Of a stretch of 64,000 bases of DNA, positions 4,281 to 64,000 are shown piece after piece; within the stretch, counting starts at the first letter, position 1; each line of letters begins with the position of its first letter. The notes under the pieces were generated by a model, which ran no database searches, was not told the DNA's origin, and saw nothing but the letters and a program-made list of their open reading frames with translations. The stretch is from NCBI GenBank assembly GCA_965220085.1, contig CBDCOZ010000002.1, positions 32,001 to 96,000 of the forward strand, given 5' to 3'. Made by a program: the position numbers and the translations under genes. This DNA comes from Candidatus Oxydemutatoraceae bacterium (GTDB lineage: Bacteria; Pseudomonadota; Gammaproteobacteria; Poriferisulfidales; Oxydemutatoraceae).

Positions 4281-4350
4281 TCCGCCTCATACAAGCCGGA
4301 ACCTTTCCCCCCTCTCCGGCAACCTGCGGGCTTCGCCCTTGGTTTGCCGA

Positions 4351-4580: not shown

Positions 4581-4659
4581 GCATTGCTTGCACAGCTATC
4601 GCATTACTGCCCGCAAGGCTGGCACGAGTACCGGAAACCTTTGTCTTAACACAAAATAA

Positions 4660-6963
<2,304 letters not shown>

Positions 6964-39832: not shown

Positions 39833-41200
39833 GTGAGCCGCCTGCCAGACAACGCGACGATTGCGGCGGTTGCCACGCCCGCGGGCTACGGCGGTGTCGG
39901 CATCGTGCGCATCAGCGGCGCGCGCGCGCGCACAATCGGTTTGCAACTGACCGCGCGACGCGCGCTGCAAGACCGCCGCGCGACCTTCTGCCGCTTCATC
40001 GCCGCCGACGGCGAGCCGATAGACGAAGGCATCGCCCTGCTGTTTGCGCGACCCCGCAGTTACACCGGCGAAGATGTGTTTGAAGCGCACGCCCACGGCG
40101 GCCCGGTCGTGTTAGAAATGCTGCTCGCCCGCGTCCTTGAATTGGGCGCGCGAATGGCCGAACCCGGCGAGTTCAGCCGGCGCGCGTTTCTCAACGGCAA
40201 GCGCGACCTCGCCCAACTGTCGGCGGTTGCCGACTTGATTAACAGCGCCAGCCAACAGGCCGCGCGCAGCGCCCGCCGTGTCGTGCAAGGCGAGTTCTCC
40301 GCGCAGGTGCGGGTCGTGTGCGAGGAGCTCAAGTCGTTGCGGGCGCTGATCGAGGCGACGCTGGATTTTCCCGACGAGGAAGACGTAACGGAAGACAACA
40401 CCCTGCAACAAACCTTGTGCGCCCGCGTCAAGGCGCTGGCACAGGCGGTGGCCGAGTTAGAACGGCGGGCGACGGGCGGGATGCGCTTGCACGAGGGCCT
40501 GGAGTTGGTCATCGCCGGCCAACCCAATGTCGGCAAGTCCAGTTTGCTCAACTGCCTCGCGCAGCGCGAGACGGCCATCGTCTGCGATGCGCCGGGGACG
40601 ACACGCGATGTCGTGCGGTGCGATATTTTGATCGACGGCATGCCGATGCGCGTTCTGGACACCGCAGGGCTTCGCCCGGGCGCCGATGCGGCGGAGCGCG
40701 AAGGCATTCGCCGGGCGCATCAAGCGATGGAGAGCGCCGATGTGGTGGTCGTCTTGGCGGATGCGACGGCGGGGCTTGGCGCGGCGGGGCGCGAGTTGCT
40801 GGATAAGTTGGCCGCCGCCGGCGCCAATGTGATCACCGCGTTGAATAAGAGCGACCTGCTCAAAGCGCCGCCGCCGGAGTCGGACACATTATATGTGTCT
40901 GCCAAAACCGGCGCCGGCATCGCTGCGCTGTGTGCGGCGATCAAAGAGAAAGCGGGGGTTGTCGATCTCGGCGAGGATACGCTGGTCGTGCAACGGCGGT
41001 ATCTGGATGCGTTGAGTCATGCGCGCAAAAACTTGGCGGCGCTCGCGCACAATCTTACGACAAGCGATGCCGATGTAGCGCTTGACATGCTCGCTCAAGA
41101 CTTGCGCGACACGCATCAAAGTTTGTCCGCGCTGCTCGGCGAGTACGCCACCGAGGACATGCTGGGCGATATCTTCTCGCGGTTTTGCATCGGCAAATAA
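39833..41200 (+). CDS. mnmE: tRNA modification GTPase MnmE
   Basis: IAAVATP.G.GG, SYTGED, GQPNVGKSS, GTTRD, DTAG, NKSD, FSRFCIGK. Confidence 0.97.
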   Translation: MSRLPDNATIAAVATPAGYGGVGIVRISGARARTIGLQLTARRALQDRRATFCRFIAADGEPIDEGIALLFARPRSYTGEDVFEAHAHGGPVVLEMLLARVLELGARMAEPGEFSRRAFLNGKRDLAQLSAVADLINSASQQAARSARRVVQGEFSAQVRVVCEELKSLRALIEATLDFPDEEDVTEDNTLQQTLCARVKALAQAVAELERRATGGMRLHEGLELVIAGQPNVGKSSLLNCLAQRETAIVCDAPGTTRDVVRCDILIDGMPMRVLDTAGLRPGADAAEREGIRRAHQAMESADVVVVLADATAGLGAAGRELLDKLAAAGANVITALNKSDLLKAPPPESDTLYVSAKTGAGIAALCAAIKEKAGVVDLGEDTLVVQRRYLDALSHARKNLAALAHNLTTSDADVALDMLAQDLRDTHQSLSALLGEYATEDMLGDIFSRFCIGK

Positions 41201-42340
41201 GTCGTCACGGCGCGGGCCGGCGGATGCGCAGATACGCCGGATGGCGCGGCAAGCCGTTGCGCGTCAAGCCCTGATAGGGGGAGTTGTCAATCTCGGCGAG
41301 GACGCGCTGGTCGTGCAACGGCGGTATCTGGATGCGTTGAGTCATGCGCGCAAAAACTTGGCGGCGCTCGCGCACAATCTTACGACAAGCGATGCCGATG
41401 TAGCGCTTGACATGCTCGCTCAAGACTTGCGCGACACGCATCAAAGTTTGTCCGCGCTGCTCGGCGAGTACGCCACCGAGGACATGTTGGGCGATATCTT
41501 CTCGCGGTTTTGCATCGGCAAATAAGTCGTCACGGCGCGGGCCGGCGGATGCGCAGATACGCCGGATGGCGCGGCAGGCCGTTGCGCGTCAAGCCCTGAT
41601 AGGGGGAGTTGTCAATCTCGGCGAGGACGCGCTGGTCGTGCGGGGGCGGTATTTGGATGCGCTCGGTCATGCGCGCAAAAACTTGGCGGCGCTCGCGCAC
41701 AATCTTACGACAAGCGATGCCGATGTAGCGCTTGACATGCTCGCTCAAGACTTGCGCGACACGCATCAAAGTTTGTCCGCGTTGCTCGGCGAGTACGCCA
41801 CCGAGGACATGTTGGGCGATATCTTCTCGCGGTTTTGCATCGGCAAATAAGTCGTCACGGCGCGGGCCGGCGGATGCGCAGATACGCCTCGCGGTTTTGC
41901 ATCGGCAAGTAAGCCGTCACGGTGCGGGCCGGCGGATGCGCAGATACACTGGATGGCGCGGCAGGCCGTTGCGCGTCAAACCCTGATAGCGGTAAGTAAT
42001 CGTCGCGCCGACCGGCGCTGGTCGTGCGGGGGCGGTATTTGGATGCGCTCGGTCATGCGCGCAAAGACTTGGCAGCGCTCGCGCACAAACTCACGACAAG
42101 CGATGCCGGGTTAGCGCTTGACATGCTCACGCAAGACTTGCGCGACACCCATCAAAGTTTGTCCGCGTTGCTCGGCGAGTACGCCACCGAGGACATGTTG
42201 GGCGATATCTTCTCGCGGTTTTGCATCGGCAAGTAAGCCGTCACGGCGCGGGCCGGCGGATGCGCAGATACACCGGATGGCGCGGCAGGCCGTTGCGCGT
42301 CAAACCCTGATAGCGGTAAGTAATCGTCGCGCCGACCGGC
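40955..42340. repeat. 325-bp tandem duplication of the convergent mnmE/ligase 3'-end junction
   Basis: FCIGK-stop recurs at 41200, 41525, 41850, (partial ~41911) and 42236. The ligase C-terminus (..YLRIRRPAP-stop) recurs on the minus strand. Confidence 0.95.
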
Positions 42341-49016: not shown

Positions 49017-50051
49017 ATGGAATACAGACAACTTGGAACTACGGACCTTCGCGTCAGCGTCATTTGTCTTGGCACGATGACGTGGGGCGAGCAGAACGAC
49101 GAGCGCGAGGGGCACGCGCAACTGGATTACGCGCTGGAGCGCGGCATCAATTTTATTGACACCGCCGAGATGTATCCGGTGCCGCCGTGCGCGGAAACGC
49201 AGGGGCGCACCGAGGCGATCATCGGCAACTGGCTTGCCAAGCGATCGGATCGCGATCAGTTGATTATCGCGAGCAAAGTATCCGGCCCCGGCATGCAGGA
49301 GTATCTGCGCGGCGGGCCGAAACTGGCGCGCGACCATCTGGAGCGGGCGCTGGCCGACAGCCTGACGCGGTTGCAGACCGATTACATAGACCTCTATCAG
49401 GTGCATTGGCCGGCGCGGCATACCAACTTCTTCGGGCGCTTGGGCTATACGCACGCCGATGATTCGGAGGCGACGCCGATTGCGGAGACTTTGGCGGCGC
49501 TGGATGAGATGGTCGCGGCGGGGAAGGTGCGCCACATCGGCATCTCCAACGAGACGGCGTGGGGGACTATGCATTGGGTGCGGCTTGCCGAGCAACATGG
49601 TCAGGCGCGCATCGTCTCGGTGCAGAATCCTTATAACCTGCTCAACCGCACCTTTGAGGTCGGCTTGGCGGAGGTGGCGCACCGCGAACATGTCGGGTTG
49701 CTCGCTTATTCGCCGCTGGGGTTTGGGGCGCTGAGCGGAAAATATCTCGGCGGGCGGAAGCCGCCGAAGGCGCGCCTGACCTTGTTTGAGCAGTTCAAAC
49801 GCTATACGAGCGCGCTCGGGGAGGAGGCGACGCGCCGCTATGTCGATGTCGCGCGCGCGGCCGGGCTGGACCCGGCGCAGATGGCGCTGGCGTATGTCAA
49901 TACGCGGTCTTTTTTGACCGCCAATATCATCGGGGCGACGACGATGGAACAACTTGCCGATGACATTGCGAGCGCGGAGGTCGCGCTGTCCGATGATGTG
50001 CTGGATCAAATAGAGGAGATTCATACCGCCATTCCCAATCCCAGCCCCTGA
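49017..50051 (+). CDS. tas: NADP(H)-dependent aldo-keto reductase Tas
   Basis: LGTMTWGEQN, NFIDTAEMYPVP, IDLYQVHWP, SNET.WG, QNPYNLLNR. Confidence 0.93.
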   Translation: MEYRQLGTTDLRVSVICLGTMTWGEQNDEREGHAQLDYALERGINFIDTAEMYPVPPCAETQGRTEAIIGNWLAKRSDRDQLIIASKVSGPGMQEYLRGGPKLARDHLERALADSLTRLQTDYIDLYQVHWPARHTNFFGRLGYTHADDSEATPIAETLAALDEMVAAGKVRHIGISNETAWGTMHWVRLAEQHGQARIVSVQNPYNLLNRTFEVGLAEVAHREHVGLLAYSPLGFGALSGKYLGGRKPPKARLTLFEQFKRYTSALGEEATRRYVDVARAAGLDPAQMALAYVNTRSFLTANIIGATTMEQLADDIASAEVALSDDVLDQIEEIHTAIPNPSP

Positions 50052-51010
50052 TGCCGTACCCCGACATCAGGCCGGAGCATCATCGCGCCGAGGGCGACGG
50101 GCGTATCGTTAGCATCGCGCTGAACGGCGGCGCCGAGGGGGGCGCTGTGGCGCTTGGGCCGGAACTTTTGAACGGCGTTGGAAGGCAGTTTGAAAACTGG
50201 TATGCGACGCCCGCCGCGCCGGTGCGCGCGCATGAGAGCGGCGTGCGCTATGCGGCGAACGCGGACATGGCCTGCGGGTTTTTGCCGCTGCGGCGGGGGC
50301 AGCCGGTGGCCGAGACGACCGCGCGGTTTTATCGGGCGCTGTTTGCGATTCTCAAAGAGTGCGGCGACTTCGCGCCGCTTCGGGTCTGGCATTACCTGCC
50401 GGATTTGAGCGGCGCGGGCGAGCCGACGCCGTATCGGATGTTTTGCCGCGCGCGGGCGGCTGTCATCGGCGCGGTGAGTCCCGGGATGCTGTGCGCGGCG
50501 ACTGTCATCGGCAGCGGCGCGGAGCACGGCCTGCTGTATTTTCTGGGCGGCGAGCGGGGCGGGCGCGTGATTGATAACCCGCGCCAGACCAATCCGAGCG
50601 ATTATCCGGCGCAGTATGGCGACCCGCCGCCGCTGTTTGCGCGCGCCGTGTTGCACCGCAGCGCTGCTGCCTGCCGACTGTATATCTCAGGCACCGCGAG
50701 CATCGTCGGCCATCGCTCGTGCCATGCGGGCGACGCTGTGGCGCAACTGGATGAGGTGGCCGACAACCTGCAGGCGTTGCTGGCGGCTGCGGCTGAGGCG
50801 GAACCCGCGTTTGCCGACAAGACCTTGCGCGACCTGCGCAGCGCCCGCCTCTACCTGAAGCGCCGCGCGGATTATGACGCTGTTGCCCGCGCCTTGCCCG
50901 CCCGCTTCGGTGCGCTGCCTGACCTCAAAATCTTTCGCGGCGAGATCTGCCGCCCCGAGTTGCTGGCGGAGATGGAGGGGATGATTGAGCAGCGGCGGGA
51001 GGGGACGTGA
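50051..51010 (+). CDS. FkbO/Hyg5/XanB2-like chorismatase (pteridine-dependent deoxygenase-like)
   Basis: R.W.Y, Y..FC.AR, NPRQ...YP.QYG..PP.FARA, ISGTASIVGH, ICRPELL.E.EG. Confidence 0.8.
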   Translation: MPYPDIRPEHHRAEGDGRIVSIALNGGAEGGAVALGPELLNGVGRQFENWYATPAAPVRAHESGVRYAANADMACGFLPLRRGQPVAETTARFYRALFAILKECGDFAPLRVWHYLPDLSGAGEPTPYRMFCRARAAVIGAVSPGMLCAATVIGSGAEHGLLYFLGGERGGRVIDNPRQTNPSDYPAQYGDPPPLFARAVLHRSAAACRLYISGTASIVGHRSCHAGDAVAQLDEVADNLQALLAAAAEAEPAFADKTLRDLRSARLYLKRRADYDAVARALPARFGALPDLKIFRGEICRPELLAEMEGMIEQRREGT

Positions 51011-51620
51011 TGCGGTGCGCGGATTATGACGCTGTTACCCGCGCCCTGCCCGCCCGCTTCGGTGCGCTGCCGAATCTTAAAATCTTTCGCGGCGAGATCT
51101 GCCGCCCCGAACTGCTGGCGGAGATGGAGGGGATGATTGAGTGCTGGCGGGAGGGGGCGTGATGCGGTGCGCGGATTATGACGCTGTTGCCCGCGCCTTG
51201 CCCGCCCGCTTCGGTGCGTTGCCGGAGCTTAAAACCTTTCGCGGCGAGATCTGCCGCCCCGAGTTGCTGGCGGAGATGGAGGGGATGATCGAGCAACGGC
51301 GGGATGTGATGCGGTGTGCGGATTATGACGCTGTTCCCCGCGCCTTGCCCGCCTGCTTCGGTGCGTTGCCGGAACTTAAAATCTTTCGCGGCGAGATCTG
51401 CCGCCCCGAACTGCTGGTGGAGATGGAAGGGATGATCGAGCACCGCCGGGAGGGGACGTGATGCGGTGCGCGGATTATGACGCTGTTACCCGCGCCTTGC
51501 CCGCCCGCTTCGGTGCGCTGCCGGAACTTAAAATCTTTCGCGGCGAGATCTGCCGCCCCGAACTGCTGGTGGAGATGGAAGGGATGATCGAGCACCGCCG
51601 GGAGGGGACGTGATGCGGTG
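50866..51620 (+). repeat. ~152-bp tandem array of the chorismatase 3' end (gene copy plus 4)
   Basis: GCGGATTATGACGCTGTT...GAGATGGA.GGGATGAT.GAG...GTGATGCGGT repeated five times. Confidence 0.95.
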
Positions 51621-51706
51621 CGGTGTGCGAGAGATTTGCGATGCCACATGCCATGACCGTTGTCACCGAGTTGGGGTGATGCGGTGCGCCCGACGGGGGG
51701 CTTGCG

Positions 51707-52522
51707 ATGCCTGAGTTGCCGGAGGTTGAAACGACTCGGCGCGGCATCACGCCGCATCTTGCGGGCAAGCACATCGGCGAGGCGGTCGTGCGCCAGCACC
51801 GCTTGCGCTTGCCGGTGACGCGCGGGCTCGCCGGCAAGGTCGGCGGGCAGCGGGTCGTGCGGGTGTCGCGGCGCGGCAAGTATATTCTGTTGCACTTGCA
51901 ACGCGGCTGCCTGCTCTTTCACCTCGGCATGTCCGGCAGTTTGCGCATCCTGCGAGAGGCGAGCGCGCCCGCCGCTCACGACCATCTGGACATCGTGATG
52001 AAGAACGGAACCGTCATGCGCTTTCGCGACCCGCGCCGCTTCGGTACCGTCCTGTGGCTGGCGGGCGACCCGTTGCGGCACAAGTTGCTGGCGCGCCTTG
52101 GGCCCGAACCGCTGGGCGACGAGTTCACCGGCGCGCATCTGCACCGCGCGGCGCAGGGGCGGCGCACGGCGGTGAAGAATCTGATTATGGACTCGCATGT
52201 CGTCGTCGGTGTCGGCAACATTTACGCGAGCGAGGCGCTGTTTGCGGCGGGCATCCATCCGGCGCGACCGGCGTGTCGCATCTCAAAGCCTCGCTACGAG
52301 CGACTTGCGGATGCCATCCGCGATGTGCTGGCGGAAGCAATCGCCGCCGGCGGAACTACGCTGCGCGACTTCATGCGCGAGGACGGGCGGCCCGGATACT
52401 TCAGTGTGAAGCTGTCGGTCTATCATCGTGCGGGAGAGGCGTGCCCGGTTTGTGCGACGCCGATTGCCAAGCGTGTCATCGGCCAGCGCGCGAGTTTTTA
52501 TTGTTCGCGTTGCCAGCGCTGA
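51707..52522 (+). CDS. mutM: Formamidopyrimidine-DNA glycosylase
   Basis: MPELPEVET, RRGKY, HLGMSG, DPRRFG, GVGNIYA.E, C-terminal zinc finger. Confidence 0.98.
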   Translation: MPELPEVETTRRGITPHLAGKHIGEAVVRQHRLRLPVTRGLAGKVGGQRVVRVSRRGKYILLHLQRGCLLFHLGMSGSLRILREASAPAAHDHLDIVMKNGTVMRFRDPRRFGTVLWLAGDPLRHKLLARLGPEPLGDEFTGAHLHRAAQGRRTAVKNLIMDSHVVVGVGNIYASEALFAAGIHPARPACRISKPRYERLADAIRDVLAEAIAAGGTTLRDFMREDGRPGYFSVKLSVYHRAGEACPVCATPIAKRVIGQRASFYCSRCQR

Positions 52523-52686
52523 TGAGGGGCGCAAGGCGGAATTTTATGAGTGTTCCTAAATTAGTATTCGTTAATTCTTTTTCTCTTCCGTCATCCCATC
52601 GTTATATTTGGGAATGAAGGGAATCTCAATTCCCGAATCGGGATTGGACTTTGCGTCTATCCGGACAACCGAGGACCACGGAAGCG

Positions 52687-53379
52687 TCAAAGCAAACCGT
52701 TCTCCGAATCGTAGGCATAAACAAAGTCATGGCTGTTCCTCAATAATATCAATTGTTTTTTCTGAACAGTTTTCCCCGTCATTAAAAATACGCTTGCGGT
52801 TTCTTTCTCGGCAATGGTATCGCCAGCAGCTTCACGCCCCAACACATAGGGCTGTAGAAGAAAAAACACGGGAGCAAAATAGCAAAATAAGAAGAGAGGG
52901 ACATTTCGGGGTGCCCGCGGATGATTGAATGCCCAGTTAATAAAGTAGTGCCACGCTACAAAAACAAAAAGGAAAAGAAGCATCGGCGGAACTTTCCCAA
53001 AGCGATATGCCACCGTTCCCACAGCCAGCACAATCATAATGGGCAAGAAAATATCTGTCCCCCTCCAAATAAGCTTAGTGAATCGGGGGAATGGCGATCC
53101 TCGAATGAGCTCATCTTCGCTCTTGTACCCTTCTGCCCTGCGGCCAAACGCGATAAGTGTGACCGTGCCAATTATCACTATAATGAGACCCTCAACCCAT
53201 GCCAAGCTCCCCACTATGTCGGCAGACGAAATCGGAATTTCCCTAAGGGACACATCAAGCGCACTCCAAAATCCCCATTCCCAGAAAAAGGAATAACCTA
53301 GGGACAAAGCGCCAAGTAAGGCGATCCACTCAACGATGGATAGCCTCGCAAACAGTGTTGAACCGGATTTTTCCGCCAT
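52687..53379 (-). CDS. Hypothetical multi-pass membrane protein
   Basis: Several TM segments; GGAGG RBS; C-terminus possibly frameshift-truncated (an adjacent frame continues LTLPWSSVVRID). Confidence 0.6.
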   Translation of the reverse strand: MAEKSGSTLFARLSIVEWIALLGALSLGYSFFWEWGFWSALDVSLREIPISSADIVGSLAWVEGLIIVIIGTVTLIAFGRRAEGYKSEDELIRGSPFPRFTKLIWRGTDIFLPIMIVLAVGTVAYRFGKVPPMLLFLFVFVAWHYFINWAFNHPRAPRNVPLFLFCYFAPVFFLLQPYVLGREAAGDTIAEKETASVFLMTGKTVQKKQLILLRNSHDFVYAYDSENGLL

Positions 53380-53456
53380 CTCGCGCCTCCCGTTACAAAA
53401 GCGCTATGGCTTTTTGATACTGCCCCGCATGGAGTGCGCATGCGGCGCGGGTTGTT

Positions 53457-54917
53457 TCATTGCTTGTTATCCTTCGGGTATGCCAGCGCCAGACAGCGCT
53501 CGGCAATCACCTTGAGCTTTTTGCTGAGGGGGTTTTTGTTGGCAGGCACGCGGGCGGCGATGATGTTTGTTAGGCCCCGCACCCCGTCTCGCGTGTACCA
53601 CACGGCGATAATAATAAGCGCAAAGCCCAGCGCCGTATCCAGCAACGCGTCTGTCCACGGCCCTTCGTTGAGGGATAGCTGAAGCAGCCAATAACCGCCC
53701 GCAACCACGATGGCGCCGACATAGCCCGCTACGAGCGCGGTGAGCGCGACCCAAGCGCAGATGTTGCCGGTATGTTTTAGTATGCGTTTGGCGTTGCTTC
53801 CTTCGTCGTAGCCGCGGAGGGCTTTTTGGCGTTGTTTTAGCTCGGCTTTGGCAGCCTCTCTGTTGTCGTAAGCCGGAGTGTATTCCGGGTCTATCTTCAG
53901 GGCCTTGCTGTAGTCTTTGATGGCGTCTTGGTATCGTTGTATCCTCGCTTTGCAGGTGCCTCTGATGTTGTAATTCGAGGCATCTTTCGGGTCGCGCTCT
54001 AGGGCTTTGTCAAAGTCTTTGATGGCCGCTCGGTATTGTTTGAGCGCGGTGTTGGCGGTGCCTCTGTTGCTGTATGTTTCGGCATCGTCCGCTCCAAGCT
54101 CTATCGCTTTGTCAAAGTCTTTGACGGCTGCTCGGTATTGTTTTAGCACGGTGTTGACGGCGCCTCTGTTGCTGTACGTCTCGGCATCGTTCGGGTCAAA
54201 CTCTATCGCTTTGTCGAAGTCTTTGATGGCCGCTCGGTATTGTCTTAGACTGATTTTGATGAGGGCTCTGTTGTTGTAAGGCGCGGCATCTTGCAGACAA
54301 AGTTCTGTGGCTTTGTCGAAGTCTTTGATGGCTTCTTGGTATTGTTTTAGCCTGCTTTTGCAGGTGCCTCGGTTGCTGTATGCCGCGGCGTATTCCGGGT
54401 TGATCTCCAGAGCCTTGTCGTAGTCTTGGAGGGCTTCTTGGTATTGCCTTGTCGCGGCTTTGACAATGCCTCTGCAGTTGTACGCCTTGGCGTATTCGGG
54501 GTTAATCTCAATGGCTTTGTCGTAGTCTTGGATGGCTTCTTCGTATTGTTTTAGCGAGGCTTTGGAGGCGCCTCTGTTGATGCAGGCTGTGGCATCCTCC
54601 GGATCAATTTCTATGGCTTTGTCGAAGTCTTTGATGGCCTCTTGGTGCTGTTCCAGATCGGCTTTGGCGAGGCCTCTGTTGTTGTAAACCACGGCATTTT
54701 CCATGTTGATTTCCAGAGCGATGCCGTAGTCTGCGACGGCCTCTTGGTATTTTTTTTGCTCGGTTTTGTCGGTGCCTTTGCTGTTGTACGCCTTGGCGTT
54801 TTTCAGATTGATCTCTATGGCTTGATCGAAGAGTCGGATGGCCTCTTGGTACTGCTCCGCACCGTAGGCTTTGTTTCCCCGTTCAAAAAGAGCGCGGCTT
54901 TTTTCGTCTTTGAACAT
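53457..54917 (-). CDS. TPR-repeat protein with C-terminal 2-TM domain (TPR-1)
   Basis: About 10 34-aa AY.NRG..K..L.QY..AI.D.DKAIE..P repeats and two hydrophobic helices; no signal peptide. Confidence 0.9.
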   Translation of the reverse strand: MFKDEKSRALFERGNKAYGAEQYQEAIRLFDQAIEINLKNAKAYNSKGTDKTEQKKYQEAVADYGIALEINMENAVVYNNRGLAKADLEQHQEAIKDFDKAIEIDPEDATACINRGASKASLKQYEEAIQDYDKAIEINPEYAKAYNCRGIVKAATRQYQEALQDYDKALEINPEYAAAYSNRGTCKSRLKQYQEAIKDFDKATELCLQDAAPYNNRALIKISLRQYRAAIKDFDKAIEFDPNDAETYSNRGAVNTVLKQYRAAVKDFDKAIELGADDAETYSNRGTANTALKQYRAAIKDFDKALERDPKDASNYNIRGTCKARIQRYQDAIKDYSKALKIDPEYTPAYDNREAAKAELKQRQKALRGYDEGSNAKRILKHTGNICAWVALTALVAGYVGAIVVAGGYWLLQLSLNEGPWTDALLDTALGFALIIIAVWYTRDGVRGLTNIIAARVPANKNPLSKKLKVIAERCLALAYPKDNKQ

Positions 54918-55218
54918 TTGAATACCTCCTGAGGTCAGCAGGCGCTACCGGCGGCGGTCGGCGCCGCGCATTTGTAGCGCGATTAATTATGGCGGCTAAT
55001 TGTACCACCAGTAATGTGCCTGTCGGCAAGCGCATATGACGAACGGCAAAAGTGAGGGTTTATAAGCCGTAGCGCCGCAATTTGCTTGGCGGCGAGTGGC
55101 CGCGGTCGCCTGCAAAAGTGAGATGTTATAGCCCGCCGCGATCGCCCAGATTGTCCGAAAAAGCGAGGGTGTCATGACCCGTAGTCGTGCAAGATGCCTG
55201 TTGCCGAGTGCCCAGATT

Positions 55219-55366
55219 ATCCGGACATCGTGATGAAGCGCGGAACCGCTGTGCGCTTTCGTGACTCCCGCCGCTTCGGTATCGTCCTGCGGTTGTCGGG
55301 ATGAAGACTTCGCCGGCGAGCATTTGCAGTGCGCAAGTTTTTATTGTTCCCGCTGCCAGCGCTAGT
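55219..55366 (+). pseudogene. mutM remnant 1
   Basis: Degenerate copy of mutM ~51985-52140 joined to the last ~35 bp of mutM. Confidence 0.8.
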
Positions 55367-55424
55367 GAAGGGAGCGGTATCCGAGGCAGCCCGGCGCTTC
55401 GCTTAGTCGCACAGGCGAACTCTG

Positions 55425-57187
55425 CTACTCGCTATCCGCACCCATGTTGCGGCCAAATGTTTTTGCCCATGTTATTGGACGAGAAAAGTTGCCGGGCGGC
55501 TCTTTGAATGTGCTTTGAATCAAGGCCTCCGGTATGCCACTCGGTGCGAGGAAGGGGTAAAGCGCCGGATCGCTTTTGCCCCCGCTGCGCTCATAGTGTT
55601 TGGTCACAGCCCGCTTGGAGCGGATATCCTCGCGCAGCGCCAGAGCATTAGTTTTGTCTTTGTCCGCCGAATGCGCCCAAAGATAAAACGGCACCAGTAC
55701 CAAAGTAGCCACCACGATAAAGGGAAGGATGCTGTGGGAGCCTTGGTCTTTCATCATTGCAATGCCGACCCATGTTGCCACACCGTAGAGGATTATAGAA
55801 GCAATAATCAAACATATTATAGAGTAGCGATGATACTTGGCTTTCGATTTATGGTCTTCTTCCATCTCTTCCATAATGGCATCGTAATCTGATGTTTCGC
55901 CTATGGCTTTTTCTGCGGCGCTCGGCTTGTCTTGCGACTCTCCCTCAAACTTTTGTTGTTGCTCCTTTAACTGTTCTTCATATTTTTGCGTTATTTTTTT
56001 CTGTTTGTCTTGTGTCAATAATAGTGTTTGTGCTACCGCTCTGTTGTGGATTGCATCAGAGAAACCCGGGTTAAGCTCTAGGGCCTTATCGTAGTCTTGA
56101 ATGGCTTCTCTGTATTGCTCTAACGTAACTTTGGTGGCGCCTCTGTTGTTGTAAGCATCGGCATATTCCGGGTTAAGCTCTATGGCCTTATCGTAGTCTT
56201 GGATGGCCTCTTGGTATTGTTTTAGATCAGCTTTGGCAATGCCTCTGTTGTTGTAAGCCTCGGCATCTTCCGGGTTGAGCTCTATGACCTTATCGTAGTC
56301 TTGGATGGCTTCTCGGTATTGCTTTAGCTTGGTTTCGGCACCTTTCGGGTTAGGCTCTATGGTCATATCGCAGTCTTGGATGGCTTTTTAGTATTGTTTC
56401 AGAAACGCTTTGGCGGCGACTCTGTTGTTGTAAGCATCGGCATATTCCGGGTTGGGCTCTAGGCTAGGGCCTTATCGTAGTCTTGAATGGTTTCTCTGTA
56501 TTGCTCTAACGTAACTTTGGTGGCGCCTCTGTTGTTGTAAGCATCGGCATATTCCGGGTTAAGTTGTATGGCCTTATCGTAGTCCCGGATGGCTTCTTGG
56601 TATTGTTTTAGCCTGGCTTTGGCGACCCCTCTGCTGTTGTAAGCCTCGGCATATTTTGGGTTGAGTTGTATGGCCTTATCGTAGTCTTGGATGGCTTCTT
56701 GGTGTTGTTTTAGCTTAGTTTTGGCAAGGCCCCTGTTGGTGTAAGTTTGGGCATTGTCCGGTTCAATCTCTATGGCTTTGTCGTAGTCTCGGATGGCATC
56801 TTGGTATTGTTCTAGCGCGGCTTTGGCGACCCCTCTGTTGTTGTAAGCATCGGCAAGTTTTGGGTTAATCTCTATGGCTTTGTCGTAGTCTCGGATGGCG
56901 TCTTGGTATTGTTCTAGCGCGGCTTTGGCGTTGCCTCTGTTGTTGTAAAGATAATGGAGCAAGGTGAGTTCCGGCTTAAGCGCCAAAGCTTTGTCGTAGT
57001 CTTGGATGGCTTCTTGGTATTGTTTTAGCGCGGCTTTGGCGTCGCCCCGGACACAGTAAGCATCGACATGTTTCGAGTTGCGCGTTATGACCGCATCAAG
57101 AAGTCCTATGACTTCTTGATACTGTCCTGCCATGTAGGCGTCGCATCCTTCCTTAAAAAGATCTTGGTTTGTTTTGTCGTTGGTCAT
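55425..57187 (-). pseudogene. Disrupted TPR-coiled coil-2TM gene (TPR-2)
   Basis: N-terminal ORF MTNDK.. stops at 56459; a degenerate TPR with an in-frame TAA lies near 56390; the C-terminal ORF is 56366-55425. Confidence 0.8.
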
Positions 57188-57371
57188 TTGAATATCCTCC
57201 TGGTTAGCAGGCGTTGCCAGTGGCAACTAGGTAATACGATAATATGGTGGCATTGTACCACCAGTAATGTGTCTGTCGGCGACCGACTATGACGAACGGC
57301 AAAAGTGAGGTGTTATAACCCGCAGCCCCGCAATTTGCTTGGCTCCGAGCGCCCATGCCGACCCGCAAAAG

Positions 57372-57555
57372 TGAGGAAGAACGGAGCCGCTGTGCGCTTT
57401 CGTGACCCGCCGTTTCGGTACCGTCCTGTGGCTGCCGGGCGACCCGTTGCGGCACAAGTTGCCGGTGCCTTGGGCCCGAACCGCCGGGCGAAGGTTTCAC
57501 CGGCGAGCATTTGCGGTGCGCAAGTTTTTATTGTTCTCGCTGCCCGCATTGATGC
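57372..57555 (+). pseudogene. mutM remnant 2
   Basis: Same segment and same internal deletion as remnant 1. Confidence 0.85.
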
Positions 57556-57610
57556 GCGTAGCGGTATCCGAGGCAGCCCGGCACTTCGCTTAGCCGCGCA
57601 AGCGAATCTG

Positions 57611-58392
57611 CTACTTGTTGCCGCCCTTCTTGTCCTCGCTACGGCGGTCAAGCGTTTTCGCTACTGCTTGAACAACGTTGGCGGGTTGCTCTTTGGATGT
57701 GCCTAGAATCAAGGCCGCCGTGCCGCTGTGTGTGTGGTGGTCAAATAGGCGCAGCAATGCTTGATTGCTTTCGCCCTCACTACGTTCGTAGTATGTGGTC
57801 AAAATAGTCAAAGCCCGCTTGGAGCGGGCATCCTCGCGCAGTGCCAGAGCACGAGCTTTGTCTCTGTCCGCCGACCGCACCCGAAGATAAAGCGGCACCA
57901 GCGCCAAAGTGACCACCGTGATAAAGGGAATGATACCGTAGGAATCATAGGAGTCTATCGCAAGCAACCCGCCGACATAAAATATTGCTACCGCACCATA
58001 GAAAAATTTGGATGTGCGAATCAAAACATCAAGAGATTGGGAATGATGATTATCTTTTGATTTATAGTCTGCTTCCATCTCTTTCATGATGGCATCGTAA
58101 TCCAGCGCTTCATCTATAGTTTCTTTTGTGTCTTGCAATCTGGCTTGCAGTTCTTGCTCAAACTTCTGTTTTTGTTCCTTTGGCTGCTCTTCATATTTTT
58201 GCGTTATTTTTTCTGTTTGTCTTGTGTCCATAATAGTGTTTGTGCCACCGCTCTGTTGTGGATTGCATCAGAGAAACCCGGGTTAAGCTCTAAGGCTTTA
58301 TCGTAGTCTTGGATGGCTCCTTCGTACTGCCCTGCATCGCAGGCTTTGTTTCCTCGTTCAAAAAAATCTCGGCTTGTTTTGTCGTCGGCCAT
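57611..58392 (-). pseudogene. Repeat-collapsed, frameshifted TPR-coiled coil-2TM gene (TPR-3)
   Basis: Only ~1-2 TPRs remain; an A6 run (A7 in TPR-2) at ~58207-58212 produces a stop; the C-terminal ORF is nearly identical to that of TPR-4. Confidence 0.8.
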
Positions 58393-59113
58393 TTGAATAC
58401 CCTCTCAGGTTAGCAGGTGCTGCCGGCGGTCAGCGCACCCAAGGCCCGGGCGCAAGCGGCCACCCTCTCGCTCGGCGCCACCCTGTGCGCCGGCCACAGA
58501 GGCGGGCGCAGGGCTTGCGGTTGTTCCGACGCTCTGGGCGGCTTGCGCTGGCGGCGCAGTACGCGCTCGGCGCGCTCGCACTCCGTGCGCAAAGCGGTTG
58601 GCTTGCGCCTCGGATGTGTTTCTGCCGGGGTCGCGCACCGGCCTCACACGGGCGGCGCGGGGGCAAAGTTCCATCGGTCGCTTGCGACCGTTGTAACTTT
58701 GGCCGCCCGTTCATCCGGCGCTTCATGTTTGTGCCACGGAGCGCTGCGGCGCTCAACTCGAAAAGCGCCACAGCATAGACTATGAAGGTTTAAAAAGTTT
58801 CGTTATGCGGTGTCGCTCGTTGTTCGCGCGATGTTACGGGTTGCCGCTCAACTGATCGGCAAAAATAATTTTGTGTCAGTCGAATAACTCTCCGGGTTCC
58901 GTTGCTCGGGTCCGACAACAAGCTTCGCATTGCAAAAAGCGGAGCAGAGCGGCAATGCTTTCGCATGCCACTCTACTCCGGTCGATATCTGAGGAGATGT
59001 ATCGAGTCTTCTGCTCTGTCACGGTGACGAAAGTGTCAACCCACCGGACAGTTTTGTTACGCGCCAGGTGTCAGAGAAACATAGCCCCCGGTGCATAGTT
59101 GCAACTTTTTCAA

Positions 59114-59392
59114 TCACTCCCCAGATCTTGACGCTCGCATTATACGCATACTTGCCCCGCGTGTCATTGTCGACACTTTTGCCGCTTCAGCCGCTTTAGC
59201 CGGTTGCAACAGTATGCGACTAGCCTCTGCCTCGCACTGTTGCAGTTGCACATAATTCATGTCTTCGTGGCAACCGAGATACTGATACACATTGCGCTTG
59301 CCCGAATACATCGGATCCTCCCACCCAACAGCATGACTCGCAACAACAAGCGCAGGCGCAAAAGTCAGGATGATTAAAAGCGCTTTTTTGAT
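59114..59392 (-). CDS. Possible small secreted protein
   Basis: KKALLIILTFAPALVVA signal-like N-terminus after an AAGGAAG RBS, but no ATG; its 5' end is duplicated at ~60160-60215. Confidence 0.35.
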   Translation of the reverse strand: MKKALLIILTFAPALVVASHAVGWEDPMYSGKRNVYQYLGCHEDMNYVQLQQCEAEASRILLQPAKAAEAAKVSTMTRGASMRIMRASRSGE

Positions 59393-59405
59393 ATCAATCT
59401 CTTCC

Positions 59406-59912
59406 TTAAGCAGGTGGGGTGGCCTCACCGTTTTTGTTGTAGCCCCAGCAGACGGCCTCGCCGGAAGGTTTCAGGGCGCAGGTGTGGAAGAACCCGGCAC
59501 TGATGGATTGGAAGCGACCGGCGGGCGGTGTGGCCTGACCGAGTCCGTTGTTGCCCCAGCAGACGGCCTTGCCGGAGGGTTTCAGGGCGCAGGTGTGGTC
59601 GCGCCCGGCACTGATGGATTGGAAGCGACCGGCGGGCGGTGTGGCCATACCGGCGACGTTCACGCCCCAGCAGACGGCCTCGCCGGAGGGTTTCAGGGCG
59701 CAGGTGTGGCCGAACCCGGCACTGATGGATTGGAAGCGACCGGCGTCCGCGGCGGCCTGACCGTATTCGTTATCGCCCCAGCAGACGGCCTCGCCGGAGC
59801 GTTTCAGGGCGCAGGTGTGGACGAGCGCGGCACTGATCTGCGCATAAAAGTAATTAGCCCATGCCGGCATCGCCCACAGCAAAAGCAATATTAAAAAAAA
59901 TAATTTTTTCAT
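59406..59912 (-). CDS. Secreted RCC1-like repeat protein, 4 repeats
   Basis: Signal peptide; 37-aa ISAG..HTCAL...G.AVCWG.N..G repeats. Confidence 0.9.
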   Translation of the reverse strand: MKKLFFLILLLLWAMPAWANYFYAQISAALVHTCALKRSGEAVCWGDNEYGQAAADAGRFQSISAGFGHTCALKPSGEAVCWGVNVAGMATPPAGRFQSISAGRDHTCALKPSGKAVCWGNNGLGQATPPAGRFQSISAGFFHTCALKPSGEAVCWGYNKNGEATPPA

Positions 59913-60216
59913 AGTTAAGTCTCCTCAAGAATCGAATGTTTAAACTTGCCAGTTCTGTCCGCTGGCATTATACACAGATTAAAGGTGCGGCTTGTGCAGA
60001 CTGCTCACAAGCCGCACAGCTCGAAGGCGCGCGCTGCTTTGCGTTGTTTGAGCGCGTCGATGTTGGGTCGTGATCATGGGGACGGCGCAGGCGTGACCTC
60101 TGTGGGTGTGCTCGGCGAAGACGAATCTCATCGCAGGGGGCCTTCTAGGAATAGGCGCAAGCGCAGGCGCAAAAGTCAGGATGATTAAAAGCGCTTTTTT
60201 GATATCAATCTCTTCC

Positions 60217-61056
60217 TTAAGAAGGTGGGGTGGCCTGACCGTATTTGTTCCCGCCCCAGCAGTCGGCCTCGCCGGAGGGTTTCAGGGCGCAGGTGTGCCA
60301 CCTGCCGGCACTGATGGATTGGAAGCGACCGGCGGGCGGTGTGGCCTGACCGTGTTTGTTGTAGCCCCAGCAGACGGCCTCGCCGGAGCGTTTCAGGGCG
60401 CAGGTGTGCTGGGCACCGGCACTGATGGATTGGAAGCGACCGGCGGGCGGGCGGGCCTCACCGTATTGGTTGTGGCCCCAGCAGACGGCCTTGCCGGAAG
60501 GTTTGAGGGCGCAGGTGTGGTCGTACCCGGCACTGATGGATTGGAAGCGACCGGCGTGCGGCCTGGCCTTGCCGTTTTCGCGGTTGCCCCAGCAGACGGC
60601 CTCGCCGGAGCGTTTCAGGGCGCAGGTGTGGTCCCTGCCGGCACTGATGGATTGGAAGCGACCGGCGGGCGGTGTGTCCCCACCGTGTAAGGACCAGCCC
60701 CAGCAGACGGCCTCGCCGGAGGGTTTCAGGGCGCAGGTGTAGAGGAGCCCGACACTGATGGATTGGAAGCGACCGGCGGGCGGGCTGGCCTGATCGAGTA
60801 CGTTGTAGCCCCAGCAGACGGCCTCGCCGGAGGGTTTCAGGGCGCAGGTGTGGTCCCAGCCGGCACTGATGGATTGGAAGCGACCGGCGTCCGCGGCGGC
60901 CTCACCGTATTCGTTGTCGCCCCAGCAGACGGCCTCGCCGGAGCGTTTCAGGGCGCAGGTGTGGCCGGACCCGGCACTGATCTGCGCATAAAAGTAATTA
61001 GCCCATGCCGGCATCGCCCCCAGCAAAAGCAACATTAAAAAAAATAATTTTTTCAT
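60217..61056 (-). CDS. Secreted RCC1-like repeat protein, 7 repeats
   Basis: Same signal peptide and upstream DNA as the 4-repeat gene; seven 111-bp units. Confidence 0.92.
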   Translation of the reverse strand: MKKLFFLMLLLLGAMPAWANYFYAQISAGSGHTCALKRSGEAVCWGDNEYGEAAADAGRFQSISAGWDHTCALKPSGEAVCWGYNVLDQASPPAGRFQSISVGLLYTCALKPSGEAVCWGWSLHGGDTPPAGRFQSISAGRDHTCALKRSGEAVCWGNRENGKARPHAGRFQSISAGYDHTCALKPSGKAVCWGHNQYGEARPPAGRFQSISAGAQHTCALKRSGEAVCWGYNKHGQATPPAGRFQSISAGRWHTCALKPSGEADCWGGNKYGQATPPS

Positions 61057-61566
61057 AGTTAAGTCTCCTCAAGAATCGAATGTTTAAACTTGCCAGTTCT
61101 GTCCGCTGGCATTCAAAGTTTGCAATGCTACAACAGGTCGGCGCTGCCTGTCAATGAGCGCGATTAGGCGCTGCGGCGCTTAAGTTGGAAAGCGCCACAG
61201 CACAGACAGATTAAAGGTGCGGCTTGTCCAGTCTACACACAAGCCGCATAGATCGAAGGCGATTATAGATCACCCTCGCCGCCGCAACCGGTCGGCTCGC
61301 AACCGGTGCGCGTTGCTTTGTGTTGCTCGATGCTTACGACTTGGCTCGGTTGTTCGCGCCGTGTTCGGTGTCGGCCAGCGCGCTGAAGGATTCGCAATGC
61401 GTGTGGTATGGGTGACCGCGTTGCTCGAACCAAGCGCTTGGCTTGTCGTCGTGGTCGGCCTGCGCATTGTCGGCCAACTTGCGCAAGGCAATTTTTCTCT
61501 GCACTTTGTGTTGGTAGCATGGTCGCTCATTGTGCCACCTGCAATGTGCCTGCTAGAGACTACCTA

Positions 61567-61766
61567 GACCATCTGGACATCGTGATGAAGAACGGAACCG
61601 CCATGCGCTTTCGTGACCTCGCCGGTTTGGTGCCGTCCTGTGGCTGCCGGGCGACCCGTTGCGGCACAAGTTGCCGGCGCCTTGGGCCCGAACCGCCGGG
61701 CGAAGGTTTCACCGGCGAGCATTTGCGGTGCGCAAGTTTTTATTGTTCCCGTTGCCAGCACTGATG
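61567..61766 (+). pseudogene. mutM remnant 3
   Basis: DHLDIVMKNGT.MRFRD..LGPEP..FTG.HL joined to ASFYCSRCQ. Confidence 0.88.
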
Positions 61767-61822
61767 CGCATAGCGGTATCCGAGGTGGCCCGGCGCTTCG
61801 CTTAGTCGCACAGGCGAATCTG

Positions 61823-63829
61823 CTACTTGTTGCCGCCCTTCTTGTCCTCGCTACGGCGGTCAAGCGTTTCCGCGACTGCTTGAACAACGCTCGCGGGTTG
61901 CTCTTTGGATGTGCCTAGAATCAAGGCCGGTGTGCCGCTGTGTGTGTGGTGGTCAAACAGGCGTAGCAACGCTTGATTGTTTTCGCCTCCCCTACGCCCG
62001 TAGTGTTCAGTCAAAATAGTCAACGCCCGTTTGGAGCGGATATCCTCACGCAGTGCCAGAGCACGAGCTTTGTCTTTGTCCGCCGAACGCACCCGAAGAT
62101 AAAGCGGCACCAGCGCCAAAGTGACCACTGTGATAAAGGGGAGAATATCGTAGGGCTCACAGGAGGGCTCACAGGATTTTATTTCAATCAACCCAAAGAC
62201 ATAAAATGCTACTACTAAACCATAAAAAAGTATGGATGTGCGCATTAAAACCTTGAGAGATTGGGAATGATGCTCATCTTTTGATTTATAGTCTGCTTCC
62301 ATCTCTTTCATAGTGGCATCGTAATCCAGCGCTTCATCTATAGTTTCTTTTGTGTCTTGCAATTTGGCTTGCAATTCTTTGTCAAACTTCTGTTGTTGAT
62401 CTCCCAGTTGTTCTTCATATTTTTGCGTTATTTTTTCCTGCTCAAATAGTGCCCGTGATGCCATCCGCCTGCTGTGCGCTTCGGCAAGGTTCGGGTTCAA
62501 TCTTATGGCTTTGTCATAGTCTTGGATGGCTTCTTGGTATTGTTCTAGGGCGGTTTTGATGATGCCTCTGTTGTTATAAGCATCGGCATTTTCTGGGTCC
62601 AGTTTTATGGCTTCATCGTAGTCTTGGATAGCCTCTTGGTATTGTCTTAGCTTAGCTTTGGCGAGGCCTCTGTTGCTGTAAGCCATGGCAAATTTCGGGT
62701 TCAGTTTTATGGCTTTATCGTAGTCTTGGATAGCCTCTTGGTATTGTTTTAGATTAGCCTTGGTATTGCCCCTGCCACTGTAAGCCATGGCATCTTTCGG
62801 GTTGAGTTCTATGGCCTTATCGTAGTCTTGGATAGCCTCTTGGTATTGCGTTAGCTTAGCTTTGATGGTGCCTCTGCTGTAGTAGGCGCCGGCATATTCC
62901 GGATTAAGTTCTATGGCTTTATTGCAGTCTTGGATAGCTTCTTGATATTGCGTTAGCTCAGCTTTAGCGCCCCCTCTGTTGACGTAAGCTTCGGCGAGTT
63001 CCGGGTCAAGCTCTATGACCTTATCGTAGTCTCGGATGGCTTCTTGGTATTGTTGTATCTCCGCTTTGGCGTTGCCTCTGCCGAAGTAAGCCTCGGCAAA
63101 TTCCGGACTCAGTTCTATGGCTTTATCGTAGTCTTGGACGGCTCCTAGGTGCTGGCTTAGCGCAGCTTTTGCGACACCCCTGTTGTAGTAAGCATCGGCA
63201 TTTTCCGGCTTAAGTTCTATGGCTTTATCGTAGTCTTGGATGGCTTCTTGGTATTGCTCTAGCGCGGCTTTGGCGTTGCCTCTGTTGTAGTAAGCGCCGG
63301 CATATTCCGGGTTGAGATTTAGGGTCTTATCGTAGTCTTGGATGGCATCTTGGTATTGCTCTAGTCCAGCTTTGGCGTTACCTCTGTTGTTGTAAGCAGC
63401 GGCATCTTCTGGATTAATCTCTATAGCCTTATTGTGGTCTTGGATGGCTTCCTGGTATTGCTCTAGCTTAACTTTGGCGTTACCTCTGTTGGTGTAAGCC
63501 ATGGCATATTCTGGGTTGAGCTCTATGGCCTTATCGCAGTCTTGAATGGCATCTTGGTACTGCTCTAACTTGCCTTTGGCAACACCTTTGCTGTTGTAAT
63601 ACATGGCATCTTTTGGGTTGATCTCTATGGCTTTATCGTAGTCTTTGATGGCTTCTTGGTGCTGTTGTAGCTCATCTTTGATGAGGCCCCTGTTGTAGTA
63701 AGCATCGGCATATTCTGGGTTAAGTTCTATGGCTTTGCTAAAAAGCTCTATGGCTTCTTGATACTGTCCTGCTTCGTAGGCAACGTATCCTTTCTTAAAA
63801 AAATCTTGGCTTGTTTTGTCGTTGGTCAT
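61823..63829 (-). CDS. TPR-coiled coil-2TM protein (TPR-4)
   Basis: About 13 near-identical 102-bp TPR units, a coiled coil, 2 TM helices and an ALALREDIRSKRAL tail. Confidence 0.92.
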   Translation of the reverse strand: MTNDKTSQDFFKKGYVAYEAGQYQEAIELFSKAIELNPEYADAYYNRGLIKDELQQHQEAIKDYDKAIEINPKDAMYYNSKGVAKGKLEQYQDAIQDCDKAIELNPEYAMAYTNRGNAKVKLEQYQEAIQDHNKAIEINPEDAAAYNNRGNAKAGLEQYQDAIQDYDKTLNLNPEYAGAYYNRGNAKAALEQYQEAIQDYDKAIELKPENADAYYNRGVAKAALSQHLGAVQDYDKAIELSPEFAEAYFGRGNAKAEIQQYQEAIRDYDKVIELDPELAEAYVNRGGAKAELTQYQEAIQDCNKAIELNPEYAGAYYSRGTIKAKLTQYQEAIQDYDKAIELNPKDAMAYSGRGNTKANLKQYQEAIQDYDKAIKLNPKFAMAYSNRGLAKAKLRQYQEAIQDYDEAIKLDPENADAYNNRGIIKTALEQYQEAIQDYDKAIRLNPNLAEAHSRRMASRALFEQEKITQKYEEQLGDQQQKFDKELQAKLQDTKETIDEALDYDATMKEMEADYKSKDEHHSQSLKVLMRTSILFYGLVVAFYVFGLIEIKSCEPSCEPYDILPFITVVTLALVPLYLRVRSADKDKARALALREDIRSKRALTILTEHYGRRGGENNQALLRLFDHHTHSGTPALILGTSKEQPASVVQAVAETLDRRSEDKKGGNK

Positions 63830-63944
63830 TTGAATACCCTCTCAGGTTAGCAGGTGCTACCGGCGGCCAGCATAGCACGTTTGTAGCACGATAGTATGGT
63901 GGCAATTGTACCACCTGCAATGTGCCCATCGCGACCGCCTACGC

Positions 63945-63995
63945 CCATCCGGACATCGTGATGAAGAACGGAATCGCTGTGCTTTCGCGACGAAA
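63945..63995 (+). pseudogene. mutM remnant 4 (partial, at the window edge)
   Basis: CATCCGGACATCGTGATGAAGAACGGAA..GCTTTCGCGAC. Confidence 0.7.
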
Positions 63996-64000
63996 AATAA

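Follow-up and report, generated by a model that had tools for sequence, protein, structure and literature searches.

A tandem array of TPR genes interspersed with mutM remnants, and their predicted membrane module distantly related to DUF6161/AbiZ

How does a bacterium come to carry a row of tetratricopeptide repeat (TPR) genes that are set apart from one another by pieces of mutM, and what might the encoded proteins do? The question is raised by a locus in the 2.49-Mb, 99%-complete genome of an uncultured marine Candidatus Oxydemutatoraceae bacterium, which we analyzed in a window of 64,000 nt (G000:C2:32001–96000; coordinates below are window positions unless stated otherwise). An original prediction, made from the letters of the window, had described four minus-strand TPR genes; by following the DNA beyond the window we found five, the last of which, TPR-5 (64046–65338, minus strand), lies 46 bases past the window end. 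Judged from its sequence, the locus appears to be a variant of the AbiZ/DUF6161 system that is new in its fusion to TPRs and its arrangement in tandem. The account that we favor, and to which we give an even chance, combines an origin by duplication with the reading of the proteins as TPR sensors joined to an AbiZ-like membrane effector.

Origin of the array

The intact mutM gene (Fpg; 51707–52522, plus strand; Pfam domains Fapy_DNA_glyco, H2TH and zf-FPG) is the source of four plus-strand remnants, and a BLAST search of mutM against the whole genome found fragments of it only at this locus. All four remnants start near mutM nt ∼262–289. Remnants 1–3 share an identical junction, ..GCATTTGC(G/A)GTGCGCAA joined to GTTTTTATTG.., at which mutM nt ∼436 is fused to nt ∼779 with a net in-frame loss of 342 nt; the junction lies at a CGCGCG microhomology that is present in mutM at both sides. 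Remnant 3 (61559–61764) is the best preserved (90–91% identical to mutM), and the open reading frame (ORF) across its junction reads ..GEHLRCASFYCSRCQH. Remnant 2 (57371–57552) carries the same deletion, remnant 1 (55207–55365, 84–89% identical to mutM) carries it together with an extra 50-nt deletion, and remnant 4 (63935–63991) has a larger deletion. The common start and the identical 342-nt junction in three remnants, which had been predicted to carry the same internal deletion, point to one duplicated unit that was itself duplicated again, and not to independent breakpoints. The sequence thus bears out the proposal of an amplification from a unit anchored at the mutM 3′ end, and the array goes back to a single duplication of a unit made of the mutM 3′ part, a TPR gene and its leader, followed by further duplication of the product.

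The leaders and spacers follow the same unit structure. About 100 nt 5′ of each TPR start codon are similar between units, and the 2.49-Mb genome has the 11-mer ATTGTACCACC at just four sites, the leaders of TPR-1, -2, -4 and -5. It overlaps a predicted promoter-like CCGACA-16-TGgTACAAT 5′ of TPR-1 (55026–54999, within the leader at 54918–55206) and of TPR-2 (57279–57252, within the leader at 57188–57370); the TPR-4 leader lies at 63830–63934, all three on the minus strand. The common upstream leader claimed for the TPR genes is confirmed; that of TPR-3 is split by a 3.07-kb insertion (58435–61500), which cuts it ∼45 nt from the start codon and leaves its distal piece, with the ATTGTGCCACC variant, at 61500–61558 (minus strand). 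TPR-5 has a leader and no remnant behind it, which fits its place at the end of the array. The conserved segment that had been noticed after the remnants is a spacer of ∼55 nt following the remnant stop codon in units 1–3, for example at 61765–61822, between the stop codons of remnant 3 and TPR-4. It is absent 3′ of the real mutM, where a 230-aa gene and the different tail of TPR-1 stand in its place.

These features give good support to the following history, the simplest that accounts for them. In the ancestral state, mutM and one TPR gene stood tail to tail. A site ∼100 nt 5′ of the TPR start codon was then joined by tandem duplication to position ∼260 of mutM, so that the second unit was headed by a dead mutM 3′ piece; this piece lost 342 nt at the CGCGCG microhomology, and the deleted unit was duplicated at least three more times. 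Later changes comprise the gain and loss of 102-nt TPR repeats, exchange between units, the 3-kb insertion, the frameshifting of two genes and the replacement of the 3′ end of the first unit. The mechanism of duplication is an ordinary one. The locus illustrates how a multigene family can arise from tandem duplication where two genes converge, with a datable scar, here the common mutM deletion, left behind.

The units, 1.3–2.3 kb in size, are old: their DNA is 79–85% identical from one to another (about 15–20% diverged). Unit 3 is a mosaic, in which the last TPR and the cap agree to 95% with unit 2 and the C-terminal domain agrees to 73–98% with unit 4 (60-nt windows), which indicates that units exchanged sequence. 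Chance and misassembly were considered as sources of the array and were ruled out by the 15–20% differences between units together with exact matches in public contigs, one of which matches window positions 52658–55418 without a single difference. The variation in unit number that the original prediction had suggested looking for between strains did not materialize: contigs of two sequencing runs and Hi-C reads of a third gave no convincing case, and the joints seen in the run data lay in the 3.07-kb insertion, which holds RCC1-repeat genes, or beyond the array, with short sides.

The mutM remnants themselves are passengers in neutral decay. Codon positions 1, 2 and 3 differ from mutM about equally often (18, 21 and 22 differences, at ∼183 sites each) and reading frames vary between the copies, both of which mark them as decaying pseudogene pieces.

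The TPR proteins and their C-terminal module

Three of the five TPR genes are intact: TPR-1 (53457–54917, 486 aa), TPR-4 (61823–63829, 668 aa) and TPR-5 (430 aa). TPR-2 (55425–57187) is a pseudogene, disrupted between 56366 and 56461 by a frameshift and an in-frame TAA and with one repeat truncated there, and TPR-3 (57611–58392) is another, with an array that has collapsed to one TPR, a −1 frameshift at an A6 run near 58207 and a promoter severed by the insertion; all are on the minus strand. The number of TPRs is 1 in TPR-3 and 6 in TPR-5 (both counted by register), ∼10 in TPR-1, ∼9–11 (in pieces) in TPR-2 and 13 in TPR-4, in agreement with the range of ∼1–2 to ∼13 given earlier. Pfam found 13 TPR_1 units in TPR-4, 10 in TPR-1, 6 and 3 in the two halves of TPR-2 and 0 in the tail ORF of TPR-3. 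Two kinds of database match were set aside: an NCBIfam match to MamA (213 bits, cut-off 200) is the summed score of many TPRs and not evidence for magnetosomes, and weak PADLOC matches to LeoBC and ZorA cover the coiled coil and membrane helices and were treated as compositional.

A cap helix (AIHNRA or AEAHSRR) closes the TPR array and is followed by a coiled coil; a pair of hydrophobic helices then leads to a tail of ∼90 residues. In TPR-4, which has all of these parts, the first transmembrane helix (TM1) spans residues ∼527–547 and is followed by a short loop, the second helix (TM2, ∼563–581) and a conserved tail (RSADKDKARALALREDIRSKRAL ... LFDHHTHSG). The flanks of the helices carry 1–4 K/R residues each (3–4 in most), and the loop of 7–18 residues between them carries 0–1 K/R and 1–4 D/E. 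No signal peptide was found on the TPR proteins, whose N-termini are hydrophilic. The charge pattern and the missing signal peptide argue that the TPR array and the tail both face the cytoplasm, as had been predicted for the TPRs.

Between units, the C-terminal domains differ in identity: 81% between TPR-3 and TPR-4, 65% between TPR-4 and TPR-5 and 48% between TPR-2 and TPR-4; that of TPR-1, which also ends in two helices, is a deviant form ∼19% identical to all others. The earlier description of TPR-1 as distinct and TPR-2 as diverged was thus correct, and that of TPR-3 and TPR-4 as near identical was too strong. The region of TM1 is the least alike between units (37–56% DNA identity, against 85–95% in its flanks), and TM2 and the tail are 85–98% alike in DNA among units 3, 4 and 5. 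An AlphaFold2 model of the C-terminal module is a confidently predicted long helical hairpin with a predicted local distance difference test (pLDDT) score of 83.6. A Foldseek search with this model against the PDB returned nothing at E ≤0.001, a wide comparison with VIA-align returned generic long helical hairpins only (Z about 8–10), from which no fold assignment follows, and a sequence-profile search of the PDB gave nothing meaningful. The module had no direct match to a Pfam, NCBIfam or PADLOC model either.

A profile comparison did reveal a distant relative. In the ESM Atlas, the nearest cluster was DUF6161 (score 0.93). Among 401 genomes sampled from the phylum, 10 supplied DUF6161 domains, nine of which went into an alignment; in hhalign, our family (38 sequences) matched this DUF6161 alignment (9 sequences) at a probability of 95.2% with an E-value of 2.8e-8 over 163 columns, a match that spans the module from the coiled coil to the LF motif and includes TM1, TM2 and the membrane-adjacent helix. 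Against a set of 12 DUF6161 sequences (the nine, a lactococcal AbiZ-type protein and two more plasmid proteins) the value was 96.2% (E 2.2e-9, 100 columns), and two independent subfamily alignments gave 89.9% and 91.6% against DUF6161. As controls, reversed profiles reached 0.6–4% and five column shuffles ≤0.3%. Of the two routes to the C-terminal domains that had been recommended, profile search and Foldseek, the first was therefore productive and the second was not.

DUF6161, in turn, is the family of the lactococcal AbiZ protein. The PADLOC AbiZ model PDLC02354 matched six of seven DUF6161 proteins (E 4e-19 to 1e-5). Furthermore, a Lactococcus dairy plasmid encodes, at its positions 4329–5627, a 432-aa protein annotated only as ‘DUF6161 domain-containing protein’, to which the AbiZ model aligns from one end to the other (E 2.6e-166); an integrase gene separates this gene from an AbiA gene. 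It is from the matches of the AbiZ model to both the DUF6161 proteins and the lactococcal protein that we equate the two families. In a limited search, the one paper found to mention DUF6161 seemingly does not state this equivalence. A preprint lists a DUF6161 family among predicted defense candidates. The original study of AbiZ is said to be that of Durmaz and Klaenhammer in 2007. As summarized in two later accounts, one of them a paper of 2019, AbiZ of Lactococcus lactis is encoded on plasmid pTR2030, leads to premature lysis and likely acts with the phage holin, raising membrane permeability (PMC13064643, PMC6356687). One of these, a 2026 review, states in its passage on AbiZ that no functional domain could be assigned to the protein (PMC13064643).

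The proteins of the array share several traits with AbiZ and DUF6161: a single polypeptide in which an N-terminal domain is followed by a coiled coil and, close to the C-terminus, by a pair of membrane helices, then a helix and tail in the cytoplasm that bear L..DA and LF motifs, and a sporadic, apparently mobile or island-like distribution. The same architecture, ending in the cytoplasmic tail, recurs among the DUF6161 proteins, single-gene putative defense proteins in which unrelated N-terminal domains stand ahead of the same module. The proteins of the array differ from them in several respects. A regular TPR array forms the N-terminal part here and in none of the 12 DUF6161 proteins examined; the tail motif is LFDHH..RGSA.LI in this family but LFRP..DG.VKDD in AbiZ/DUF6161; and the genes form a five-unit tandem array. 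We consider the module to be a distant relative of DUF6161/AbiZ, and not a member by the curated models.

The family is rare and sporadic. A full HMMER pass over 1.84 billion representatives yielded 44 clusters at E ≤1e-3. In all 39 members fetched the module was C-terminal, and in most of them TPRs stood ahead of it. The closest relatives are single ENA metagenome proteins with 52–59% identity, the module was absent from all 40 relatives of the bacterium in its family and order, and tblastn searches against phages and plasmids gave no match. Across the family, the tail and the membrane-adjacent stretch (RDK..ALREDA, LFDHH) are best conserved.

Proposed function and its alternatives

What might such proteins sense? 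The 32 internal repeats that we compared had mean repeat-to-repeat DNA identities of 0.69–0.79 (maximum 0.93) and protein identities of 0.50–0.71, and repeats within a gene were no more alike than repeats of different genes; the last three repeats correspond one to one in TPR-4 and TPR-5. The high DNA identity among repeats that had been stated is thus moderate, and with repeats 50–71% identical in protein and no greater likeness within genes the comparison with the conserved repeats of fungal NLR sensors is at best loose. Repeat entropy peaks at positions 2, 5, 9, 10, 13, 15 and 34. At TPR positions 2, 5, 9, 12 and 13, which form the ligand face and were named before the test, the ratio of nonsynonymous to synonymous divergence (dN/dS) was 1.18 compared with 0.33 elsewhere, and at the scaffold positions it was 0.27–0.54, in line with purifying selection. 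A value of 1.24 for sites chosen by entropy was discarded as circular in favor of these preset positions. The pattern fits diversifying or relaxed selection on the presumed binding face and conservation of the scaffold.

The genomic company of DUF6161 also points towards conflict with phages. Six of the seven DUF6161 loci examined had restriction-modification (RM), Abi, prophage, integrase or toxin–antitoxin neighbors: one gene lies within a type I RM operon with AbiD, one is two genes from an Abi_alpha/PDC-S47 gene, one is in a prophage, and the others are beside an integrase, a resolvase and a RelA_SpoT gene (PDC-S33), beside a RES-Xre toxin–antitoxin pair, and beside Schlafen/AlbA_2 and type IIG RM genes. 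Near the array itself, type III RM genes, SoFic, a PD-Lambda-2_B-like gene and PDC-S01 lie 3.7–19 kb past TPR-5; a protease gene and a Sel1 gene stand between.

From these data a defense function is plausible, and the TPR genes probably make up a small set of sensors for phages. TPR-4 and TPR-5 would be inner-membrane proteins in which the coiled coil and two-helix hairpin join the TPR array to the tail. The array would bind a protein of the phage, or one of the host that the phage has altered, upon which the AbiZ-like hairpin would compromise the membrane or speed holin triggering, so that infection aborts. Because variation among the paralogues is greatest on the TPR ligand face, in TM1 and in the loop, we read the array as a repertoire of specificities. 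A more specific version, in which a germline repertoire of single-chain sensors uses the TPR array and the hypervariable TM1/loop jointly to set the specificity of an AbiZ-type lysis-clock effector, is tentative, and we judge it less probable than the account as a whole. In this version TM1 and the loop could be the surface that meets the phage holin in the membrane, and new specificities would come about by tandem duplication, followed by gain and loss of repeats and exchange between units. The earlier analogy to two-transmembrane abortive-infection effectors gained ground through the profile homology to DUF6161/AbiZ; the accompanying likeness to fungal NLRs is loose, as no NTPase domain is present.

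AbiZ is among the few defense proteins reported to hijack the lysis clock of the phage itself, and it is linked here to DUF6161 and to a rare TPR-fused branch. This supplies a module boundary (coiled coil, two helices and tail), conserved motifs and a paralogue series varying in sensor length and in TM1, which is material for studying how such proteins recognize infection. If the more specific version is correct, the array would be the first AbiZ relative with a recognizable modular sensor and a bacterial counterpart of clustered, fast-turnover immune-receptor genes.

Comparison with other membrane effectors and repeat-bearing sensors helps to place the locus. SLATT and other two-helix membrane effectors are described in CBASS, retron/DRT and GAP1 abortive-infection systems (PMC7159879); they resemble the TPR proteins in having a two-helix membrane module, predicted to damage membranes, that is coupled to a sensing part, but the array has no nucleotide-signaling partner gene. 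No SLATT model matched in the Pfam scans (E ≤10 for the C-terminal domains, E ≤1 for subfamily members), and the RTasSLATT models matched 2–3 of the 38 family members at E 0.002–0.05, which is noise level. Fungal and bacterial NLR/STAND receptors are sensors with internally conserved TPR, ANK or WD repeats. They share with the array a variable repeat number and a concentration of variation on the ligand face; unlike them, the TPR proteins have no NACHT/NB-ARC NTPase domain and their repeats are not homogenized within a gene. Indeed, no STAND NTPase domain was found, and Pfam gave only TPR-type families in TPR-1, -2 and -4, the remainder of the protein being taken up by the coiled coil and membrane module.

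Several results speak against an AbiZ-like sensor repertoire or loosen its basis. The Pfam model of DUF6161, PF19658, matched none of four C-terminal domains at E ≤10 and, at E ≤1, neither any of seven subfamily members nor anything in the six translated frames of the genome. The PADLOC AbiZ model matched no window protein at E ≤1 and none of the TPR genes at E ≤10, and only one of the 38 family members reached E 0.005 with it. A single AbiZ-type sequence scored only 5% against the family profile, so that the link depends on profile–profile comparison. The tail of TPR-1 is unrelated to the others and was matched by neither the family profile nor the DUF6161 profile. Turning to the repertoire, synonymous divergence between repeats is ∼0.6, so there has been no recent amplification; two of the five genes, TPR-2 and TPR-3, are broken; and ligand-face variation is general in TPR proteins, with a dN/dS near 1 also fitting relaxed selection. 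One of the seven DUF6161 genes (positions 9290–10831 of its locus) lies inside the housekeeping dcw cluster for cell division and the cell wall, where it is flanked by murC and murB; a defense-type gene is out of place there, and this is the only such exception. Finally, scans of genome, metagenome and viral contigs gave no confirmed relative and hence no gene context from outside.

The strongest alternative is that the proteins are membrane-tethered cytoplasmic TPR scaffolds, for instance organizing an envelope or transport complex, in which the hairpin is an anchor without any role in conflict and the array a by-product of duplication. TPR arrays serve generically as scaffolds for interactions, the fold search gave generic hairpins only, no partner gene or enzymatic domain accompanies the module, and the DUF6161 gene in the dcw cluster would suit such a role; tandem duplication is, moreover, common in this region, with 10 further tandem arrays in the window besides the TPR and RCC1 repeats. 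However, the tail and the membrane-adjacent stretch are the best conserved parts, which is unexpected of an inert anchor, and the homology of the module to AbiZ/DUF6161, its absence from the 40 relatives, the dispensability of two of the five copies and the nearby defense genes all argue the other way. We regard the scaffold as a possible but unlikely explanation. Should the function not be defense, the locus would still be a clear example of the evolution of a paralogue array, and otherwise ordinary.

We consider it improbable that the genes encode eukaryotic-like repeat proteins that act on an animal host, in phagocytosis or trafficking, and are perhaps inserted into host membranes like chlamydial Inc proteins. 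TPR, Sel1 and RCC1 repeat genes do cluster at the locus, and one TPR protein of a sponge symbiont is reported to have altered the interaction between bacterium and sponge when expressed in another bacterium (PMC13747020). The TPR proteins described here, however, lack a signal peptide and have a topology that puts the TPRs in the bacterial cytoplasm; the 99%-complete genome holds no marker of type III (FHIPEP), type IV (VirB4) or type VI (TssC) secretion, other export routes being unsearched; and the membrane module is related to a phage-defense family that also occurs in free-living Bacillota.

More doubtful still is a decaying relic, acquired once, amplified by chance and now being lost, whose intact copies have no current function. 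The two broken genes, the promoter lost to the insertion, the neutral decay of the remnants and the age of the units would all agree with it. Against this, three genes have stayed open over 430–668 codons despite ∼20% divergence, the TPR scaffold positions are under purifying selection, and the tail motif has been kept at the high DNA identity seen among units 3, 4 and 5. That the mutM remnants are functional, as terminators, insulators, small RNAs or recombination sites of a cassette, is very improbable and largely refuted, since a hairpin and T-run exactly on the deletion junction of remnants 2 and 3 and the retention of remnants at all four junctions are outweighed by conserved spacers and junction hairpins that fold no better than shuffled sequence (z −0.84 to +1.34), no Rfam match at E ≤1, further deletions in remnants 1 and 4, evenly spread substitutions and differing frames.

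Surroundings of the array

Upstream of mutM lies an FkbO-like/chorismatase-like gene (50051–51010). At 50865–51622, its last ∼50 codons are present in five tandem copies of 152 nt that are 91% alike and form a run of ∼51-aa mini-ORFs directly 5′ of mutM. With these repeats upstream and the TPR units downstream, mutM is flanked by duplication arrays on both sides. Among 17 loci of relatives, the order AKR-FkbO-mutM was complete in 6 and FkbO-mutM was found in 12; the DNA 3′ of mutM, unlike these upstream genes, differs among the relatives examined, which makes the 3′ end of mutM a synteny break. The G+C content is 66.5% in mutM and 47–48% in TPR-2 to TPR-5. It is 47% in the 230-aa ORF 3′ of TPR-1 (52687–53379, minus strand), which encodes a multi-pass membrane protein with no Pfam, NCBIfam or PADLOC match; a search of 5.8 billion proteins gave it no more than two relatives, at 59% and 36% identity. 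This ORF and TPR-1, whose tail is unlike all others, may form a two-gene unit.

Past TPR-5, the order is a divergent S41 protease gene, the Sel1-repeat gene, which encodes a membrane protein, and then a defense island (66501–84500, corresponding to G000:C2:98501–116500). In the island, a type III restriction enzyme stands with its methylase, and another endonuclease–methylase pair is accompanied by a 763-aa protein that belongs to no known family; further members are SoFic, a helix-turn-helix protein like PD-Lambda-2_B/RmrA and an AAA_14-DUF4143 protein (PDC-S01).

The insertion in the TPR-3 leader contains two RCC1-repeat genes, both on the minus strand and both with a signal peptide, of 168 aa (59406–59912) and 279 aa (60217–61056); one is a tandem duplicate of the other (88% identity), and both consist of 111-nt repeats. 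On another contig, at G000:C3:1187528–1190295, three copies of CATTTGAATAC..CATAACCCC..TTGGGGCAT stand ∼1.38 kb apart and look like a separate tandem repeat family with no relation to the TPR genes. Nine of the further tandem arrays of the window are gathered at 21673–48669, with periods of 57–386 nt, as exemplified by 13.9 copies of a 113-nt repeat at 37778–39347 and 2.9 copies of a 325-nt repeat at 40954–41888.

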